From: an uncultured virus (IMG/VR IMGVR_UViG_3300044911_003846)
Lineage: Duplodnaviria > Heunggongvirae > Uroviricota > Caudoviricetes
DNA: 20,293 bases
IMG/VR virus record: IMGVR_UViG_3300044911_003846
Direction: 5' to 3' (one strand)
Of this stretch, positions 4,118 to 20,098 are shown one piece after another. The notes beneath the pieces are model-generated. The model ran no database searches. It was given only the letters and a program-made list of their open reading frames with translations, and was not told the DNA's origin. A program made the position numbers and the translations under genes. Every line of letters begins with the position of its first letter. Within the stretch, counting starts at the first letter, position 1.

Positions 4118-6373
4118 TTATCCTAATGCAATTGCAATTGCAGTGGCAAAATCTTGTGTAGCAACAGTGCCAGTTTCATCCGGCAATGTCACGGTTTGAT
4201 TAGCGGTTAGTGTTGCAGGGGTAATTGAAGCGGAAAATGAACCTGAACCCCCCGCTCGTCCAGTGATAACAATTCCATCCTGTGTTGCGGCCCGGCGAAA
4301 AACTTGTCCCGTTGCATTTGTAAATGTATTTGCCCCGGTAAAGGCATTGTTAGCACCTAAATAAGCAACAGTGCCACCAGCTCCGAATGCAACCGACGAT
4401 GCATCCGTACCTGAAAAAGTTAAAGTATTAGATACAGTAAGAGTTTTACCATCTGCAATGGTTAAAGTGGCACTAGTAGCTGGTGCTGTAATTGCAACTT
4501 TATTAATTGATGTCGCGCTAGCAACACCCAAAGATGGAGTCGTAAGTGATGGTGACGTTGCAAAAACAAGCAAGCCAGTACCGGTTTCATTGGTTACAGC
4601 GGCTGCTAAGTTAGCGCTAGTTGGCGTTGCAAGAAATGTTGCAATACCTGTAGCAAGGCCAGAAATGCCGGTAGAGATAGGCAATCCAGTGCAGTTTGTT
4701 AATGTTCCAGACGCCGGTGTTCCTAAAGCAGGGGTGATAAATGTAGGTGAATTATTAAAAACAAGCAAGCCGGTACCGGTTTCATCGGTTACAGCGGCTG
4801 CTAAGTTAGCGCTAGTTGGCGTTGCAAGAAATGTTGCAATACCTGTAGCAAGACCAGAAATACCGGTAGAGACAGGCAATCCAGTGCAGTTTGTTAATGT
4901 TCCAGACGCCGGTGTTCCTAAAGTAGGGGTGATAAATGTAGGTGAATTATTAAAAACAAGCAAGCCAGTACCGGTTTCATTGGTTACAGCGGCTGCCAAG
5001 TTGGCGCTAGTTGGCGTTGCAAGAAATGTTGCAATACCTGTAGCAAGACCAGAAATACCGGTAGAGACAGGCAATCCAGTGCAGTTTGTTAATGTTCCAG
5101 ACGCCGGTGTTCCTAAAGTAGGGGTGATAAATGTAGGTGAATTATTAAAAACAAGCAAGCCGGTACCGGTTTCATCGCTAATAACCCCAGCCAATTCCGC
5201 TGAAGTTGTCGCCGCAAAAAACGATAATTTATTACCACTTAAGGCAATTGTTCCGTCTAAATCCTGTACGGTTAGTGTTCGTGTGGTTGCAGCTGTAATA
5301 CTTGAGGCACTAAAAGCAATTTGCTTTGTAATATCAGTCGTATTACGAATCCGGAATCCGCTGTCATTAGTGGTAATTCCAGTGGAAGTTACCGATGTCA
5401 AACCAGTGAGTGTCGTCGAGCTGCTGCCAAGTGCAATAGCAGTGCTTCCAACAGTAATTGAGCTATTTGCTAATTGAGAGTTGGGGATTGCGCTGGTACC
5501 GAACTGACCCGTGGTGCTGTTGTAAGTTAATCCCGAACCAACTGCGACACTAAGTGCGCCGCGAATATTGGCGTCGGTAACAACAGCAAAAGCATAATTA
5601 CCGGTGGTACTGTTATACGTTAAAGATCCGTAACCCGTACCAGTTGTAGAGGCACTTAATGCGCCTCTGATGTTGGCATCTGTAACAACAGCGTAACTAA
5701 AAGCTCCGGTAGCACTGTTGTAAGAAAGCGAACCATAGCCAGTGCCAGTATTTGCAGCACTGAGGGAAGTCAGAAGAGCAACGGTACCAGCGGCATCAGG
5801 AAACGTAATAGTGCGATCAGCTGTTGGGTTGGTAACAGTAAGAGTTGTTTCAAAAGCATCAACTCCAGAGCCTTCAAAAACAATGCCAGTGCTATCCAGC
5901 TGGATGGTGTTTGCGGCTCCAGCAGCACCTCCAGCAATCAGTGTTGTAGAACTGAGACTCGTAAGGCCTGCAACGGTGGTTGCTGTGCCTCCAAGAGAAA
6001 CAGAAGTGGATCCAATCGTAACTGAACTATTGGCCAGCTGGGAGTTGGGGATGGCACTGGTGCCAAAAACCCCGGTGCTGCTGTTATATGTAAGTCCCGA
6101 ACCAGCAGCGACACTGAGTGCCCCACGAATATTGGCGTCGGTAACAACAGAAAACGTAATAACGCCCGTAGCGGAACTATAAGAAAGTGCTCCATATCCT
6201 GTACCGCTTGTGCTTACGGAGATGGCACCACGAGCGCGAGCATCCGTGTAATAAAGACGGGTTCCTTCCGCTAAATCAGTTGTAGAGTTACCAGCAAAAT
6301 CAAGCTTATCGGTAGGAGTATTGACCTCCTCAAATAAACCGCTAACAAGACAAAGTGCTTTTCTAGTTGCCAT
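4118..6373 (-). CDS. Long repetitive tail fibre (751 aa)
   Basis: Thr/Ser/Gly/Ala-rich. Contains TTDLAEGTRLYYTDARAR, FEGSGVDAFETTLTVTNPTADRTITFPDAAGTV and DETGTGLLVF repeats. Ends in FATAIAIALG. Confidence 0.85.
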   Translation of the reverse strand: MATRKALCLVSGLFEEVNTPTDKLDFAGNSTTDLAEGTRLYYTDARARGAISVSTSGTGYGALSYSSATGVITFSVVTDANIRGALSVAAGSGLTYNSSTGVFGTSAIPNSQLANSSVTIGSTSVSLGGTATTVAGLTSLSSTTLIAGGAAGAANTIQLDSTGIVFEGSGVDAFETTLTVTNPTADRTITFPDAAGTVALLTSLSAANTGTGYGSLSYNSATGAFSYAVVTDANIRGALSASTTGTGYGSLTYNSTTGNYAFAVVTDANIRGALSVAVGSGLTYNSTTGQFGTSAIPNSQLANSSITVGSTAIALGSSSTTLTGLTSVTSTGITTNDSGFRIRNTTDITKQIAFSASSITAATTRTLTVQDLDGTIALSGNKLSFFAATTSAELAGVISDETGTGLLVFNNSPTFITPTLGTPASGTLTNCTGLPVSTGISGLATGIATFLATPTSANLAAAVTNETGTGLLVFNNSPTFITPTLGTPASGTLTNCTGLPVSTGISGLATGIATFLATPTSANLAAAVTDETGTGLLVFNNSPTFITPALGTPASGTLTNCTGLPISTGISGLATGIATFLATPTSANLAAAVTNETGTGLLVFATSPSLTTPSLGVASATSINKVAITAPATSATLTIADGKTLTVSNTLTFSGTDASSVAFGAGGTVAYLGANNAFTGANTFTNATGQVFRRAATQDGIVITGRAGGSGSFSASITPATLTANQTVTLPDETGTVATQDFATAIAIALG
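4562..5176. repeat. Tandem 195-bp (65-aa) near-identical coding repeat, about 3.1 copies
   Basis: caagcaagcc(a/g)gtaccggtttcat recurs at 4567, 4762, 4957 and 5152 (exact 195-nt period) with only a few substitutions between units. Confidence 0.95.
5440..6210 (-). repeat. Diverged coding repeats in the fibre N-terminal half
   Basis: GTGYGxLxYxSxTG...VVTDANIRGALS occurs three times (about 6120-6205, 5655-5750, 5550-5640). GSGLTYNSxTGxFGTSAIPNSQLANSS occurs twice. Confidence 0.85.
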
Positions 6374-11945: not shown

Positions 11946-12248
11946 TTAACTGACGATGTCTAAATTACGCAATTCTGCGCCACCAATATAAGGTGCAGGT
12001 AGTGCGGGTGGATTACCAGTACTACCTATTAAGTTTAAATTAAATGCATCCCCAGCGAGCCGAGATTTCCGCTCACGCGGTAATCGGGCACCGACTCCCA
12101 AATATCCGCCCCCACCTCCAGGTAGAGTTGGATCTGCAGCCATAAAACCCTGGAAGTCGCCCTGGTTGGTGGCTAGAGGGGCTTCAGACGGACGCTTGTT
12201 TTGGGATATACCGAGCATATAGCCCATTCGAGTACCAGCTTTATCCAT
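11946..12248 (-). CDS. Hypothetical Gly/Pro-rich protein (about 100 aa)
   Basis: Likely start is ATG 12248 (MDKAG), preceded by SD GAGGAGG and overlapping the upstream stop. Confidence 0.7.
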   Translation of the reverse strand: MDKAGTRMGYMLGISQNKRPSEAPLATNQGDFQGFMAADPTLPGGGGGYLGVGARLPRERKSRLAGDAFNLNLIGSTGNPPALPAPYIGGAELRNLDIVS

Positions 12249-12459
12249 TTTGTTTCCTCCTCGATGCAAGTTCTACTGCTCGCCGAGCTTTTTTTGCTCG
12301 TTCAGTATTTGAAACAAATTGCTTACCCTCTCGGGATTCTCGTTGTTTTTTCTCGTCTGTACGGCGCCGCTCTTCTGGCGTTAACTTCGACCACGCAGAT
12401 TCTGGAAGGTAACGCTCGGTACCTTTTTTACCAGGTTCAATAGCCTTGTCGACAGCCAT
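12241..12459 (-). CDS. Basic protein matching the C-terminal half of DUF5872-type proteins
   Basis: TERYLPESAWSKLTPEERRRTDEKKQRESREGKQFVSNTERAKKAR. Start ATG 12459 via TAATG coupling. Confidence 0.75.
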   Translation of the reverse strand: MAVDKAIEPGKKGTERYLPESAWSKLTPEERRRTDEKKQRESREGKQFVSNTERAKKARRAVELASRRKQNG

Positions 12460-12878
12460 TACTCTTGGATTGATCCGCCATAAAGCCACGCATCACAAGT
12501 GCGCGACCCTGCACATTTAAATTTGAACAACTGACAATAGCCAAGGTTTGCGCGTTCTTGTACATCCCAAGGATCTGCCGCTTCTTTCTCATTGATTCCC
12601 TGAATGATGCAATCAATAACTTTTGGAGATTGATCAAATGCAGCGCAATTACAACAGCGTGCAGACATGACAGTGTTTACATCACTGTTCCACATCTCCG
12701 CCTTCTTCTCCCAAAAGCCGGGATCCGGAACATCTGGGTTTAAGGGACCATAGGCAAAGTTTTTAATAGTCCAATTTCGATTTTTGATGTTCTCTTCAAT
12801 ATCAGTCGTTGCACGAGGACAGGATTCACCTACCTCGGTAACAGTTTTATTGAGCAGAATCTTTACTTTATTTTCCAT
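12459..12878 (-). CDS. Cys-rich protein with HiPIP-like cysteine spacing (139 aa)
   Basis: RCCNCAAF...GYCQLFKFKCAGSRTCDAW. Start ATG 12878 via TGATG coupling. Confidence 0.75.
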   Translation of the reverse strand: MENKVKILLNKTVTEVGESCPRATTDIEENIKNRNWTIKNFAYGPLNPDVPDPGFWEKKAEMWNSDVNTVMSARCCNCAAFDQSPKVIDCIIQGINEKEAADPWDVQERANLGYCQLFKFKCAGSRTCDAWLYGGSIQE

Positions 12879-13225
12879 CACGCAGCCGCCACGCTGAACG
12901 TCACTACTGCAGCCGTGCCGCCAGACTCACTAACAAAGCGAGGACGAACATATTTAACAGGCCTGTCGCCCACACTGTACACAGTGGTCCCGTTGGCAGT
13001 GATGGTTTGATCTGCAATGATCGGAGCATAATTTGTCCCATCAATACTACCTTCCAGGCGAACAACAACGTTGGTATTGATGGTAGCGACCGTCACAATC
13101 AAGGTGTACGCCTTGGTACTACACAAATCATTTACACCGACCTCAACAGTGGTACCAAGCCCAGCCTCGGTTAAGGCTGTGCTAGTACTAAAAATTGTGT
13201 CTTGAAAGAAATAACCCGCCGCCAT
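12878..13225 (-). CDS. Small all-beta structural protein (115 aa)
   Basis: VVVRLEGSIDGTNY...YVRPRFVS jelly-roll-like pattern; Thr/Val-rich. Confidence 0.7.
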   Translation of the reverse strand: MAAGYFFQDTIFSTSTALTEAGLGTTVEVGVNDLCSTKAYTLIVTVATINTNVVVRLEGSIDGTNYAPIIADQTITANGTTVYSVGDRPVKYVRPRFVSESGGTAAVVTFSVAAA

Positions 13226-13253
13226 GATTTCCGATATTTTCTTTTAGTTTAGT

Positions 13254-13490
13254 TCAGCCCTTATCCTTTTTCTCGTACTCTTCACGAGTCATCCATTTCT
13301 GTTCGCCCCAACGCTTCAACGACTTTTGGCCCTCGGTACGCTCGCCTTTGTAACCACCACCACGTCGCTTATAGGCCTGCGCCAGAAGCTGTGCCTTGCG
13401 GGCTGACCATTGACCCGGCTTGCCACCTTTAGATCCCGCTTTGATCTGGGCTTTAAGACGCTCGCGTAGTTCTGGTTTTGTATATGCCAT
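13254..13490 (-). CDS. DUF5872-type basic protein, N-terminal half only (78 aa)
   Basis: YTKPELRERLK..IKAGSKGGKPGQWSARKAQLLAQAYKRRGGGY...QKSLKRWGEQKW signature. Confidence 0.8.
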   Translation of the reverse strand: MAYTKPELRERLKAQIKAGSKGGKPGQWSARKAQLLAQAYKRRGGGYKGERTEGQKSLKRWGEQKWMTREEYEKKDKG

Positions 13491-13771
13491 CAGAACTGAT
13501 TTTGAATCGGCCTTTTATTAAGAATAACAGGCGGAATGCTGTCACTGTAACTGCGACTAACCTCTCTCATGTAAGCAGGATTATTCATTTGGTAACGTGG
13601 ATCGTCGGTGCCGTTATATGCAACGACGTAACCGCATTTGCTTTCAGATTCCCGACGAACCTCATTAAATGGATCGCTAAACCCAGCGGTTTGCAGGCTG
13701 TAATCCTGATACATATTTTGATAGGTTACCGGAAATCCCTGAGAATAACCGGGAACAGCAGCGAATCTCAT
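13490..13771 (-). CDS. Hypothetical protein (93 aa)
   Basis: Stop/start coupled to both neighbours. Confidence 0.7.
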   Translation of the reverse strand: MRFAAVPGYSQGFPVTYQNMYQDYSLQTAGFSDPFNEVRRESESKCGYVVAYNGTDDPRYQMNNPAYMREVSRSYSDSIPPVILNKRPIQNQF

Positions 13772-14406
13772 TACGTTAAGTAGTTAGGCGTTTGTGAGAA
13801 CGCTTGGGTGAGCATCCCGACCGGGTCAATCATTGAGCGAACCTCTGGTTCTACTCCAAGAGATTGCTGAAGGTAAGAACTTAAGAAACTTTCCGGAGTG
13901 GTTGCCTTTTTACGGCCACCAACAATGATATAAGTATCGGCCGGAGCGATCTGAGGTTGAACCATTGGAGAAGCCTCAGTCTGCTTACCACCCTTGGTAT
14001 GAAGAAGACGAATCTCGTATGGAGTGCCCTGTGGGTCGGTGGTTTTAATCGTTCCATATCCCTTTCCCGGAGTAAATGTACCCGGTCCTTCCCAGGCTAG
14101 TGGGGTGCCTCCAGCGATCCCATAATCCTGCCCCATGTGTTGGGTGGAAGCCCCCTTGGTTGGTGCAACACGCTGTCCAAAAGGAGAAGTAATGGTGTAG
14201 CTTGGGCTCCACTCCTCTCCTTTCTGCTGCCAAAGAGGCTTCCGTTCTTTTCCGACTTTTAATCTCGTTAACAGAGAACGGATCGTACCGGGATCAACAT
14301 ACTTCCCATCTTTTAAAACACGGACATCAAGATGAGGCCCGGTCGTAGGAAATACATCTTGTCCGGCCGGTGTCACATATCCGACATCAGTTAACGAGTT
14401 TGCCAT
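13771..14406 (-). CDS. M23-family peptidase-like protein, circularly permuted
   Basis: TTGPHLDVRVLKDGKYVDP precedes ITSPFGQR...HMGQD...GTP...GYG...LLH, the reverse of the canonical M23 motif order. Confidence 0.8.
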   Translation of the reverse strand: MANSLTDVGYVTPAGQDVFPTTGPHLDVRVLKDGKYVDPGTIRSLLTRLKVGKERKPLWQQKGEEWSPSYTITSPFGQRVAPTKGASTQHMGQDYGIAGGTPLAWEGPGTFTPGKGYGTIKTTDPQGTPYEIRLLHTKGGKQTEASPMVQPQIAPADTYIIVGGRKKATTPESFLSSYLQQSLGVEPEVRSMIDPVGMLTQAFSQTPNYLT

Positions 14407-14408
14407 TA

Positions 14409-15059
14409 TCAGGACCCCAGATAATTAGGTGTCTGCGAAAAAGCAGCAGTTAGCATCGCTGCAGGGTCAAGACTCGATTGCACTTTCGGGGCTTTACCAC
14501 CAGCGATGTTGCGCATGATGAAATCGTCTAAATAGCTGCTTGGTTCGACCTGTGGTTCAGTATCACCAAAAATGATAAAAGTCCTACCACGAGCAGCGGT
14601 CTCTTGCGATGGACTTGGCTGACGACCCTGAAGAGCCTCCGTAAAACTAAACTGATCAGGACCAATAATTTTTTGAACATACCGGTTGGTTTCGGCGTAC
14701 TTCTTACTGGCCTCAACGGCTCCGGGTCCAGCATTGTAAGCGCGTAGACCTTTTTCATAAGCAGCCCTGAGTTGCATTGGGTCACTAACCTGACCTGGTT
14801 GTTTACCACCAAGGTAGGTTTTGATGTAACCCGCCATATTCTTGGCAGCAGCATCTAATGCGGCAACGGGATCATCCGGATTAACACCCCAACCCTTGGC
14901 GGTTGCAGGCATAATCTGAGCAATTCCACGGGCGCCAGCAGAAGAAATAGCCTTCGGATTAAAGCCAGATTCGGCTTGAATTTGGCGCTCAAATACTTGA
15001 GGTAAAAGCCCATATTTTTGGGCTTTTTGACGGGCAATCTCGCGATAGTCGGTAGGCAT
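14409..15059 (-). CDS. Soluble lytic transglycosylase (SLT domain, about 216 aa)
   Basis: QAESGFNPKAISSAGARGIAQIMPATA and AYNAGPG motifs. Likely start is ATG 15059 (MPTDY), not 15218, which overlaps the upstream gene. Confidence 0.92.
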   Translation of the reverse strand: MPTDYREIARQKAQKYGLLPQVFERQIQAESGFNPKAISSAGARGIAQIMPATAKGWGVNPDDPVAALDAAAKNMAGYIKTYLGGKQPGQVSDPMQLRAAYEKGLRAYNAGPGAVEASKKYAETNRYVQKIIGPDQFSFTEALQGRQPSPSQETAARGRTFIIFGDTEPQVEPSSYLDDFIMRNIAGGKAPKVQSSLDPAAMLTAAFSQTPNYLGS

Positions 15060-15081
15060 ACGTATGGCTGAGTACGTGGCG

Positions 15082-15561
15082 TTAGCGGAAATCGGTTGAA
15101 AGCATAAGCCGAGTACCGACAGCAACGTCGGCAGGGCCAGGGAGCGCTTGAATGAATTCAGCGCCTTCTCGGTTGAACCGATACCGAGCTTGCTCGGGAT
15201 TTCGGTAATTGGGGACATACAGATGTAGGGCTAATCGATCCGTCTCGTATAAATAAATCGCCGTCCAAGTTTTCAGCGTGTCTCTGAAATCAGAGGTCGC
15301 AATCGTACGATCAACGTCACCGGCTATGCTCTCAATACGACTACGTGGGACGGTATTATTATTCACGCTGCCAGTCATGTCAGTGCGCTTTTCAGCCTCG
15401 TCGCACCGACCGATCTGTTCGACAATTTTCGAATACCAGAACGAATCTTGGATGTTGTTGACAGCTTCCTCTAGACGCGCTTGGTCACCAGCCGGGACAG
15501 ACGTCAGGTTATAACCCAGGTGCCAGCGGACTTTGGACTTAAGGAAGGTATCGAGTTGCAT
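15082..15561 (-). CDS. Putative head-tail adaptor / head completion protein (159 aa)
   Basis: Helical protein beginning KSKVRWHLGY, located downstream of the capsid genes. Function inferred from position. Confidence 0.55.
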   Translation of the reverse strand: MQLDTFLKSKVRWHLGYNLTSVPAGDQARLEEAVNNIQDSFWYSKIVEQIGRCDEAEKRTDMTGSVNNNTVPRSRIESIAGDVDRTIATSDFRDTLKTWTAIYLYETDRLALHLYVPNYRNPEQARYRFNREGAEFIQALPGPADVAVGTRLMLSTDFR

Positions 15562-19090: not shown

Positions 19091-20098
19091 TCACTCCATC
19101 ACCAGCAGCTTCTGACGGAACACTTCCGGATTCTGCTGGGCAGCATTCAGATAGCGCCAAGCGTTGGAGGGGTCACGCTCAGCCAGGGAGCCGAAGCTGT
19201 TCCAGAAATCAACGGGATTACCCTGAGCCTGGGGCTGAGGGGGGACCGGCATTTCAGGGCGCTGGGGAGCAACCGGACGCTGGAACTGTTGACCCACGGC
19301 CTGAGCCTGAGCTTGCTGAGGAGCGGCGTAACCGATCTCTTCATCGGGGATCGGGTAGGGGCCGTTCTCGCCGAAGAACTCACAGGTGTAATCAGCGAGC
19401 ACATCGGGGTCGGTCAGGATGGTCTCGTAAGCTTTGTGCTCATTCGACAGTTCCTGAAGCAGATTGACGGCTTCGATCAGCTGATTGTTGGTGGTGATCA
19501 GAGCGTCTTCAAGCTGGCAAGCGTAGTTATTGAGGATCGCCGGAACGTCAGGACCGAAATAATCAATAACCTCAAGACTTGCTTCGCTTACCCCGTTTGC
19601 TCGGAGCTGCTGGGGGCTGATTTCCAGCGAAGTTTGGGAAGAGCCGTTGGAGTAGGCCTGGTTGTTGTTGATCCCAGGCATAGAGGTCGGCATCCCCGCG
19701 TTGCTGTACTGGGGAGCCTGCTGGGAAGCGTAGCTGGCCGGGTCGATTTGAGGGCTCAGATTCGACTGTTGACCCTGGAATGGGAATTGGACGGGCGAAC
19801 TCAGGAGCCCCACCACTCGGTTGAACGCTTCCTTGTACGGATTCTCCGCCTGTTGGGGCGCCTGGGGTGCTTGGGGGTACGACGCTGTAGGGGCGGAGGG
19901 GTACCCGTTCACCCCCATCTGGGCCTGCATTTGCGGGGCTGGGGCCGCCACTTGCTGGTAAGGCGCCACCCATTGGGAAGTCGTTGAAACCGCTGGAGCT
20001 TGTGCCGCCGTCTGCGCCACCGGAGCCCCGTAGCTGATCGGCTGGGTCGGGGATACTTGGGGTGCCGATTGGGTCGGCATTGCGGTATCGGCCTGCAT
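19091..20098 (-). CDS. Putative capsid scaffolding protein (335 aa)
   Basis: SD GAGGT before ATG 20098. Pro/Gln-rich disordered N-terminus, acidic helical/coiled-coil core, position upstream of the capsid gene. Confidence 0.7.
   Translation of the reverse strand: MQADTAMPTQSAPQVSPTQPISYGAPVAQTAAQAPAVSTTSQWVAPYQQVAAPAPQMQAQMGVNGYPSAPTASYPQAPQAPQQAENPYKEAFNRVVGLLSSPVQFPFQGQQSNLSPQIDPASYASQQAPQYSNAGMPTSMPGINNNQAYSNGSSQTSLEISPQQLRANGVSEASLEVIDYFGPDVPAILNNYACQLEDALITTNNQLIEAVNLLQELSNEHKAYETILTDPDVLADYTCEFFGENGPYPIPDEEIGYAAPQQAQAQAVGQQFQRPVAPQRPEMPVPPQPQAQGNPVDFWNSFGSLAERDPSNAWRYLNAAQQNPEVFRQKLLVME

Follow-up and report, generated by a model that had tools for sequence, protein, structure and literature searches.

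Ribosome hopping over a gap within a coding sequence is known from very few genes: the accessible portions of two articles name the T4 gene 60 family and its relatives, the mitochondria of Magnusiomyces, and Streptomyces phage Hau3, and the T4 cassette is described there as unique (Manning and Atkins, bioRxiv 10.1101/2022.08.31.505936; Antonov et al., PMC10732093). Specifically, a 50-nt bypass at T4 genes 39/60 is linked to the MobA element, for which the available text describes an element-encoded homologous region, matched codons, a UAG, a tetraloop hairpin (GNRA in some cases) and an AU-rich tail, as well as gaps that can be as short as 20 nt, a site shielded from being cut again, and a nuclease that is lost later on; by the same text, its metagenomic tables concern topoisomerase genes (Manning and Atkins, bioRxiv 10.1101/2022.08.31.505936). 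The DUF5872 family (PF19197) is without described function, and its place in the literature searched, which excludes subscription journals, amounts to a table entry in a single paper. A split of a DUF5872-type protein like the one considered here is present in Synechococcus phage S-EIVl (KJ410740), in which AHV82147 and AHV82149 are each 60% identical to the corresponding half, and whose capsid protein shares 69% identity with that of the genome studied here; S-EIVl differs, however, in having one unrelated gene between the halves, in the annotation of both halves as hypothetical, and in its other gene neighbourhood. A search of the literature outside subscription journals found neither this split nor the element described below in print.

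The DNA analysed here, hereafter the window, is a stretch of 20,293 nucleotides that forms the end of the complete genome, 82,293 bp long, of a lake phage (IMG/VR IMGVR_UViG_3300044911_003846), in which the N and C pieces of a DUF5872-type protein are each present once and no more. A sequence-only reading had described this protein as encoded by two non-adjacent genes with two unrelated genes between them, and the open reading frames, their coordinates and their motif blocks bear this out: the N-half carries GGKPGQWSARKAQ, GGGY and SLKRWGEQKWMT, the C-half carries TERYLPESAW and KQFVSNT, and the order along the coding strand is N-half, 115-aa gene, Cys-rich gene, C-half. The intact coupled start codons that it reported are likewise present, each ATG sharing one base with the upstream stop (TGATG at 13490, TAATG at 12459). 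The features of the locus are given below.

13490..13771, minus strand: 93-aa gene upstream, its stop overlapping the N-half start
13254..13490, minus strand: N-half of the split DUF5872-type protein; 78 aa, pI 10.3; PF19197 E 7.5e-6, profile positions 4-70 of 116; phrog_17747
13254..13490, minus strand: the same N-half allele, uninterrupted (empty) in the window, in which a new helical tail follows the W-x-T motif and closes the reading frame
13404..13409, minus strand: codons of Trp28-Ser29 (TGG TCA), insertion site of the endonuclease element and gap of relatives; empty in the window
12878..13225, minus strand: 115-aa beta-rich gene between the halves, a variable passenger; phrog_9522 E 6e-5; DUF6385 E 9e-4, below cut-off
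12459..12881, minus strand: Cys-rich 140-aa gene between the halves, a variable passenger of an unnamed phage family; ATG at 12878 overlapping the preceding stop
12241..12459, minus strand: C-half of the split protein; 72 aa, pI 10.4; phrog_14910; its start is the loop that follows W-x-T in fused homologs

The 115-aa product weakly resembles, in sequence, the C-terminal domain of a tail protein, and searches of Pfam and PHROGs returned no family for the Cys-rich protein.

The two halves correspond to consecutive parts of one longer protein. A search for longer relatives of the N-half found 2140 proteins, and among the best 120 of these, which were analysed, 113 are matched by both halves, N then C, at a distance of -1 to 15 residues; the tiling of full-length homologs that had been anticipated is therefore observed, far beyond chance. 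The fused protein P0013 (34.3 bits, PF19197 profile 4-110) illustrates the arrangement, its residues 4-71 matching the N-half (71%) and its residues 82-127 the C-half (63%). Identity to single-chain proteins named DUF5872 is 60-70% for the N-half and about 50-60% for the C-half. Unlike the fused PF19197 proteins, the window has two genes with new termini, neither of which alone reaches the Pfam cut-off: the N-half, which corresponds to part of a model that covers both halves, scores 27.0 bits against a gathering cut-off of 27.5, and no Pfam family matches the C-half. Many fused homologs also score under this cut-off. The protein is cut within the loop that follows W-x-T: the C-half begins at the D-K-A-I segment, and the N-half runs on into a short new helix. 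An origin of the two halves by duplication was considered and rejected, the profile comparison giving a probability of 4.7%.

In relatives of the window the N-half gene is the target of an element. Among viral contigs, 52 have the gene interrupted at Trp28-Ser29, usually with an endonuclease-VII-type gene upstream, and the break, at GEWS/SARKAQ, is present in 12 of 160 loci found by protein and in 11 of 74 complete loci found with the C-half. The nuclease upstream of the break is 201-204 aa long and belongs to the endonuclease VII family (PF02945, E 1e-22), and an orphaned stub, often found upstream of the break, corresponds to the original first 27 codons of the N-half gene. A search with the nuclease only yielded 46 loci. 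In all 38 close ones a replacement 5' end precedes TCG-TAG, and the stub is present in 30 of them (ending at GQ-stop in most of the 30); the 8 distant ones are without the cassette. One example is located as follows.

L219, 1465-2230: the element (further cases in L212, L093 and L241)

The element measures approximately 765 nt. Its left end was mapped to the Trp codon because two near-identical contigs from RNA libraries, which match the left flank of L219 at 117/119 and 130/131 letters (98-99%), continue as empty alleles. A fixed insertion site with near-identical empty alleles, as in homing endonuclease elements, is thus present. Both subclades contain filled alleles (in 13 and 22 distinct loci, respectively), and one such allele, L093, has the gene neighbours of the window. 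As judged by motif, the full nuclease is kept in 31 of 42 alleles, and 7 alleles with enough flank have lost both nuclease and stub with the gap retained; most of the nuclease is gone, and the gap still there, in L130:3547-4001 and L137:3066-3630. No copy of the endonuclease is found in the complete genome of the window, and a scan of that genome for the hairpin signature returned one unrelated match only. Mechanistically, the element would insert in the N-half gene, orphan the first 27 codons, supply a nuclease together with a replacement 5' end, and leave behind in the gene a gap of 20-30 nt.

Hairpins control T4 homing nucleases, and a hairpin at the left end of the element recalls them: located upstream of the nuclease in L219 (1466-1492) and in L241, it holds a promoter-like TGnTATnGT just before the nuclease start, and a comparison of L241 with L246 reveals a change on both sides of one pair.

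The gap itself has a largely constant layout, consisting of a take-off TCG, TAG, a GNRA hairpin, an AU-rich tail and a landing TCG, with alleles in all three frames. The pattern used for viral contigs left the hairpin and both third bases free; it matched 54 contigs, of which 52 are true alleles (43 distinct), L371 and L389 being dropped, like 10 of the 87 metagenome matches, as non-DUF5872 or cut by contig ends. All 43 distinct viral alleles take off from TCG, 41 land on TCG and 2 on TCT, and a 5-bp stem with a GTAA, GTGA, GGGA, GCAA or GAAA loop is present in 42 of the 43. In the metagenome scan, the pattern for which excluded the landing codon, the 77 matches within the N-half gene land on TCG (73), TCT (3) or TCA (1), and at the level of alleles the TCG/TCG pair is found in 65 of 68, the rest landing on TCT or TCA. 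Within a set of 42 alleles, TAG directly follows take-off in 42/42, the 5-bp stem and GNRA loop are found in 41/42, and mean AU is 0.87. Gaps measure 20-26 or 30 nt and hold 2-4 in-frame stops, the metagenome matches covering every length from 20 to 26 nt as well as 30 nt. TCG stands at the site in only 4 of 56 empty alleles, a contrast that is partly one of descent since the landing codon travels with the element; neighbouring codons provide the better, internal control. The codons after landing vary synonymously, the commonest type of the next Ala and Arg codons accounting for only 23 of 42, and the AU-rich tail varies right up to the landing codon. Purifying selection flanks the gap (dN/dS 0.185 before, 0.13 after). 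Together these data suggest that the ribosome hops over the gap from one TCG to the other, a reading to which we assign a good probability: it would take off at TCG, stall at TAG in the GNRA hairpin, and land on the matching TCG. The same TCG-TAG-GNRA hairpin word also occurs outside the N-half gene in metagenome contigs L394, L399, L416, L417, L427, L442, L457 and L476, reflecting either chance or other elements.

A competing reading, which we regard as doubtful, is that no hopping takes place: the gap would do no more than disrupt the gene, or the ribosome would get past it through re-initiation at the KAQM Met, through stop readthrough or through intron removal. A broken gene would be compatible with recent elements, and the Met at the KAQM place, six codons after landing, is present in 12 of 14 out-of-frame alleles (e.g., L035, L093, L094), compared with 3 of 28 in-frame and 13 of 56 empty alleles, an excess that is either a lineage effect or a back-up start. 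Yet the 28 of 42 alleles that are independent of frame hold 2-4 in-frame stops all the same, and 25 of these 28, as well as 2 out-of-frame alleles, are without the Met. Furthermore, the S-A-R-K-A-Q codons before the Met vary only synonymously across 10 distinct out-of-frame forms, and the same signals are kept with endonucleases as far apart as 51% identity. Rfam searches returned no family in the window or in four element loci, hence no intron match, and a 696-nt RNA-library contig covers nuclease, replacement 5' end and gap in undeleted form, although its source is a single run and DNA may be what was sequenced.

If hopping does take place, its closest parallel is the T4 MobA element, which the element of the relatives resembles in several respects: a nuclease lies within the gene, the element encodes a copy of the displaced region, take-off and landing codons match, UAG follows take-off, a stable tetraloop hairpin and an AU-rich tail are present, and the nuclease is progressively lost while the gap stays. 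In contrast to T4, the nuclease is an endonuclease VII (PF02945) rather than MobA, the target is a DUF5872-type gene rather than the topoisomerase large subunit, and the codon is Ser TCG rather than Gly or Asp. Additionally, the invariant stem begins at the stop codon, and no mini Shine-Dalgarno is found 5-7 nt before landing, where the listed gaps contain A, T and C only; the nearest AGG or GAG belongs to the hairpin, at least about 9 nt before the landing codon. Unlike in T4, the element replaces the whole 5' end, and a single product of hopping would thus take the place of the original protein. Given another nuclease, target and codon, and the missing mini Shine-Dalgarno, the sequences indicate an element that works like the T4 MobA element and is no member of it; by analogy, the gap probably keeps the nuclease from cutting the site again. 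The Hau3 terminase bypass and the Magnusiomyces mitochondrial inserts are similar in that short coding gaps are crossed by re-pairing at a landing codon, and they differ in that a rare codon, not a stop, is the trigger; the accessible text on Hau3 contains 0 occurrences of a homing nuclease (Antonov et al., PMC10732093).

The cassette of the relatives is therefore put forward as a strong sequence-level candidate for a second, independent bypass linked to a homing nuclease, with the window's N-half gene as its empty target. Stated in full, we consider it likely that cyanophages carry an independently evolved programmed bypass in which an endonuclease-VII homing element rebuilds the 5' end of the N-half gene and leaves a minimal 20-30 nt TCG-UAG-GNRA-hairpin-TCG hop, represented by dozens of variants in three frames, and that the window holds the empty target within a gene split into reassembling halves. 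This candidate matters more than the split. If true, a further cassette tied to a nuclease, but distinct in enzyme, target and codon, would mean that hopping has evolved more than once as a way for homing elements to gain immunity, and the minimal signals for bypassing could be tested directly on its short gaps with their natural variation. The split alone is a modest result: for a family that has hardly been studied, it indicates where constructs may begin and end and offers evidence that the protein has a function.

To place the split, fused and cut architectures were surveyed across related phages, and both were found. Scanning 2 of the 64 parts of IMG/VR with the N-half gave 599 relatives, the best 80 of which comprise 43 fused loci, 22 with the cut after GGGY, 12 with the window's cut and 3 that are incomplete; the best 80 of 194 C-half relatives comprise 74 cut as in the window and 6 incomplete. 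Consistently, 74 of the 80 loci found with the C-half hold the N part, another 5 end at most 627 nt upstream (contig ends), and 1 is without the middle. In L144:3892-4207, a deletion derivative, the middle of the N-half gene is missing next to an intact C-half. In a FastTree tree (161 rows, 114 columns, midpoint root, no topology test), which took in 31 of the 113 fused proteins and excluded interrupted and incomplete loci, all 61 rows with the window-type cut fall in one clade (support 0.898) nested among fused rows, and 24 of the 25 with the GGGY-type cut fall in another (support 0.852), also among fused rows. Two separate clades of cut rows point to at least two independent fissions in the DUF5872-type family, and the tree indicates that the window's split is inherited, common to one clade of S-EIV1-like phages and not peculiar to this genome. 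The idea that the split marks a unique domain boundary does not hold, since 25 loci, including HMO-2011, pelagiphage Lederberg and MEP402, are cut at the second point, after GGGY.

Both halves are under purifying selection, with dN/dS of 0.115 (57 N cores) and 0.148 (63 C cores) for pairs with pS <0.7; between the window and L081, pS is 0.50 and 0.57 in the two cores, and neither contains an amino-acid change. With fused homologs and a single clade of split rows, this supports the natural fission that the sequence-only reading had proposed: the fission of the window's gene is real, inherited and selected, a new instance of a kind already known. The 98 distinct loci with the window-type cut show 23 arrangements of genes between the halves (adjacent in 29, the Cys-rich gene only in 15, both window genes in 14, others in fewer), at a spacing of -11 to 1383 nt and always on one strand. 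The two intervening genes, though present and unrelated as described, are therefore no defining feature of the locus; they are incidental passengers. The ancestral gene would have broken once, in the loop after W-x-T, each half would then have acquired its own new end, genes would have moved into and out of the space between them, and the two chains would together adopt the compact fold that modelling gives for the fused form.

Reassembly of the products in trans, which rests on homology and co-occurrence, is somewhat likely. It competes with the view, which we think unlikely, that the halves are independent small basic modules that form no complex, the fused forms being mosaics. Several observations fit independence: the family is cut at two different points, its first module is also embedded in a 1022-aa phage protein, fusions to other small modules such as DUF6321 exist, and PHROGs keeps the halves as two families (17747 for N, 14910 for C). 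The second cut point and the embedded module suggest that parts of the family may be semi-independent. However, a near-constant short linker joins the parts in 113 of the best 120 longer homologs, the halves lie at most 1.4 kb apart on one strand in 98 of 98 distinct loci, and the N-half alone models poorly, with a pLDDT of 61.5 as opposed to 90.6 for the fused form, a comparison confounded by its less diverse alignment.

The fused homolog is modelled with a pLDDT of 90.6 and a pTM of 0.62 as helices with short strands at residues 2-3, 47-48, 66-67, 75-80 and 84-85. The window's cut maps between residues 67 and 75, with short strands on both sides, and the DSSP line would suggest a fold that needs both halves, its strands pairing across the cut. 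The predicted complex of the two halves, run without controls, scored 0.24 against a mark of 0.32 and weighs neither for nor against assembly. Sequence search returned no solved structural relative, and the fold search gave no Foldseek match at E 0.001 and a best VIA Z of 4.6, which does not make the fold new.

With respect to the origin of the fission, a since-departed homing endonuclease may have caused it, as for T4 genes 39/60, instead of a stop-start mutation followed by gene insertions; we hold the former improbable. In its favour, the same gene is invaded elsewhere, and in 4 of 98 distinct loci (including L138:260-649, L139:3526-4011 and L210) nuclease-like genes with AP2 and a weak HNH_3, or HTH, lie between the halves, the HNH label resting in part on motifs and Pfam support being weak. 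The new termini of both halves are, moreover, like the insert-derived tails described in the accessible part of Manning and Atkins (bioRxiv 10.1101/2022.08.31.505936). Against a homing origin, the halves are adjacent with coupled stop-start in 29 of 98 loci, the tails are short, and neither a bypass nor a nuclease relic is found at the window's junction. Finally, rejoining of the window's halves by RNA splicing, protein splicing or a long ribosome hop, for which collinear order on one strand might speak, is exceedingly improbable in view of the separate coupled start and stop and non-homologous tail of each half, the variable spacing with unrelated genes between, and the lack of any Rfam family in the window or intein domain in Pfam scans.

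The protein formed by the halves, both of which have a pI >10, may perhaps be a small basic nucleic-acid-binding late protein or one with a role inside the head, a tentative proposal. Fused relatives carry Rho_N, DUF6321 or histone-like tails, the window's halves sit among capsid, transglycosylase and tail genes, and in L169 the gene is flanked by terminase and a portal-like gene, whereas in MEP402 it precedes terminase. Considered jointly, the favoured and probable explanation is that selected split halves, likely reassembling into a basic late protein, include an N-half whose gene is targeted in relatives by the element. Among 80 bacterial DUF5872 loci, of which 12 representative neighbours were scanned, no consistent function emerged from the neighbourhoods; UvdE adjoins in 5 and DUF6321 in 3 (e.g., L308, L334). 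DUF6321 is also fused to DUF5872 in several proteins, such as P0010 and P0026.

Several further observations concern the window as a whole. Promoter and terminator scans gave counts at or below those of shuffled sequence, and RNA runs matched the window in only 3 short pieces, each <40 nt. On the minus strand, the endolysin-like gene (13771-14406) and the transglycosylase gene (14409-15218) have a C-terminal stretch in common, closing with DPxxMLxxAFSQTPNYL and possibly a targeting tag, and NYFA/NYLA ends similar to those of the window's lytic genes are found upstream in L166, L171, L205, L207 and L208. A 751-aa fibre-like protein (4118-6373, minus strand) contains several internal repeats, including about 4 copies of a unit of about 57 residues, and at 19572-20098, also on the minus strand, two open reading frames overlap at length on the same strand.
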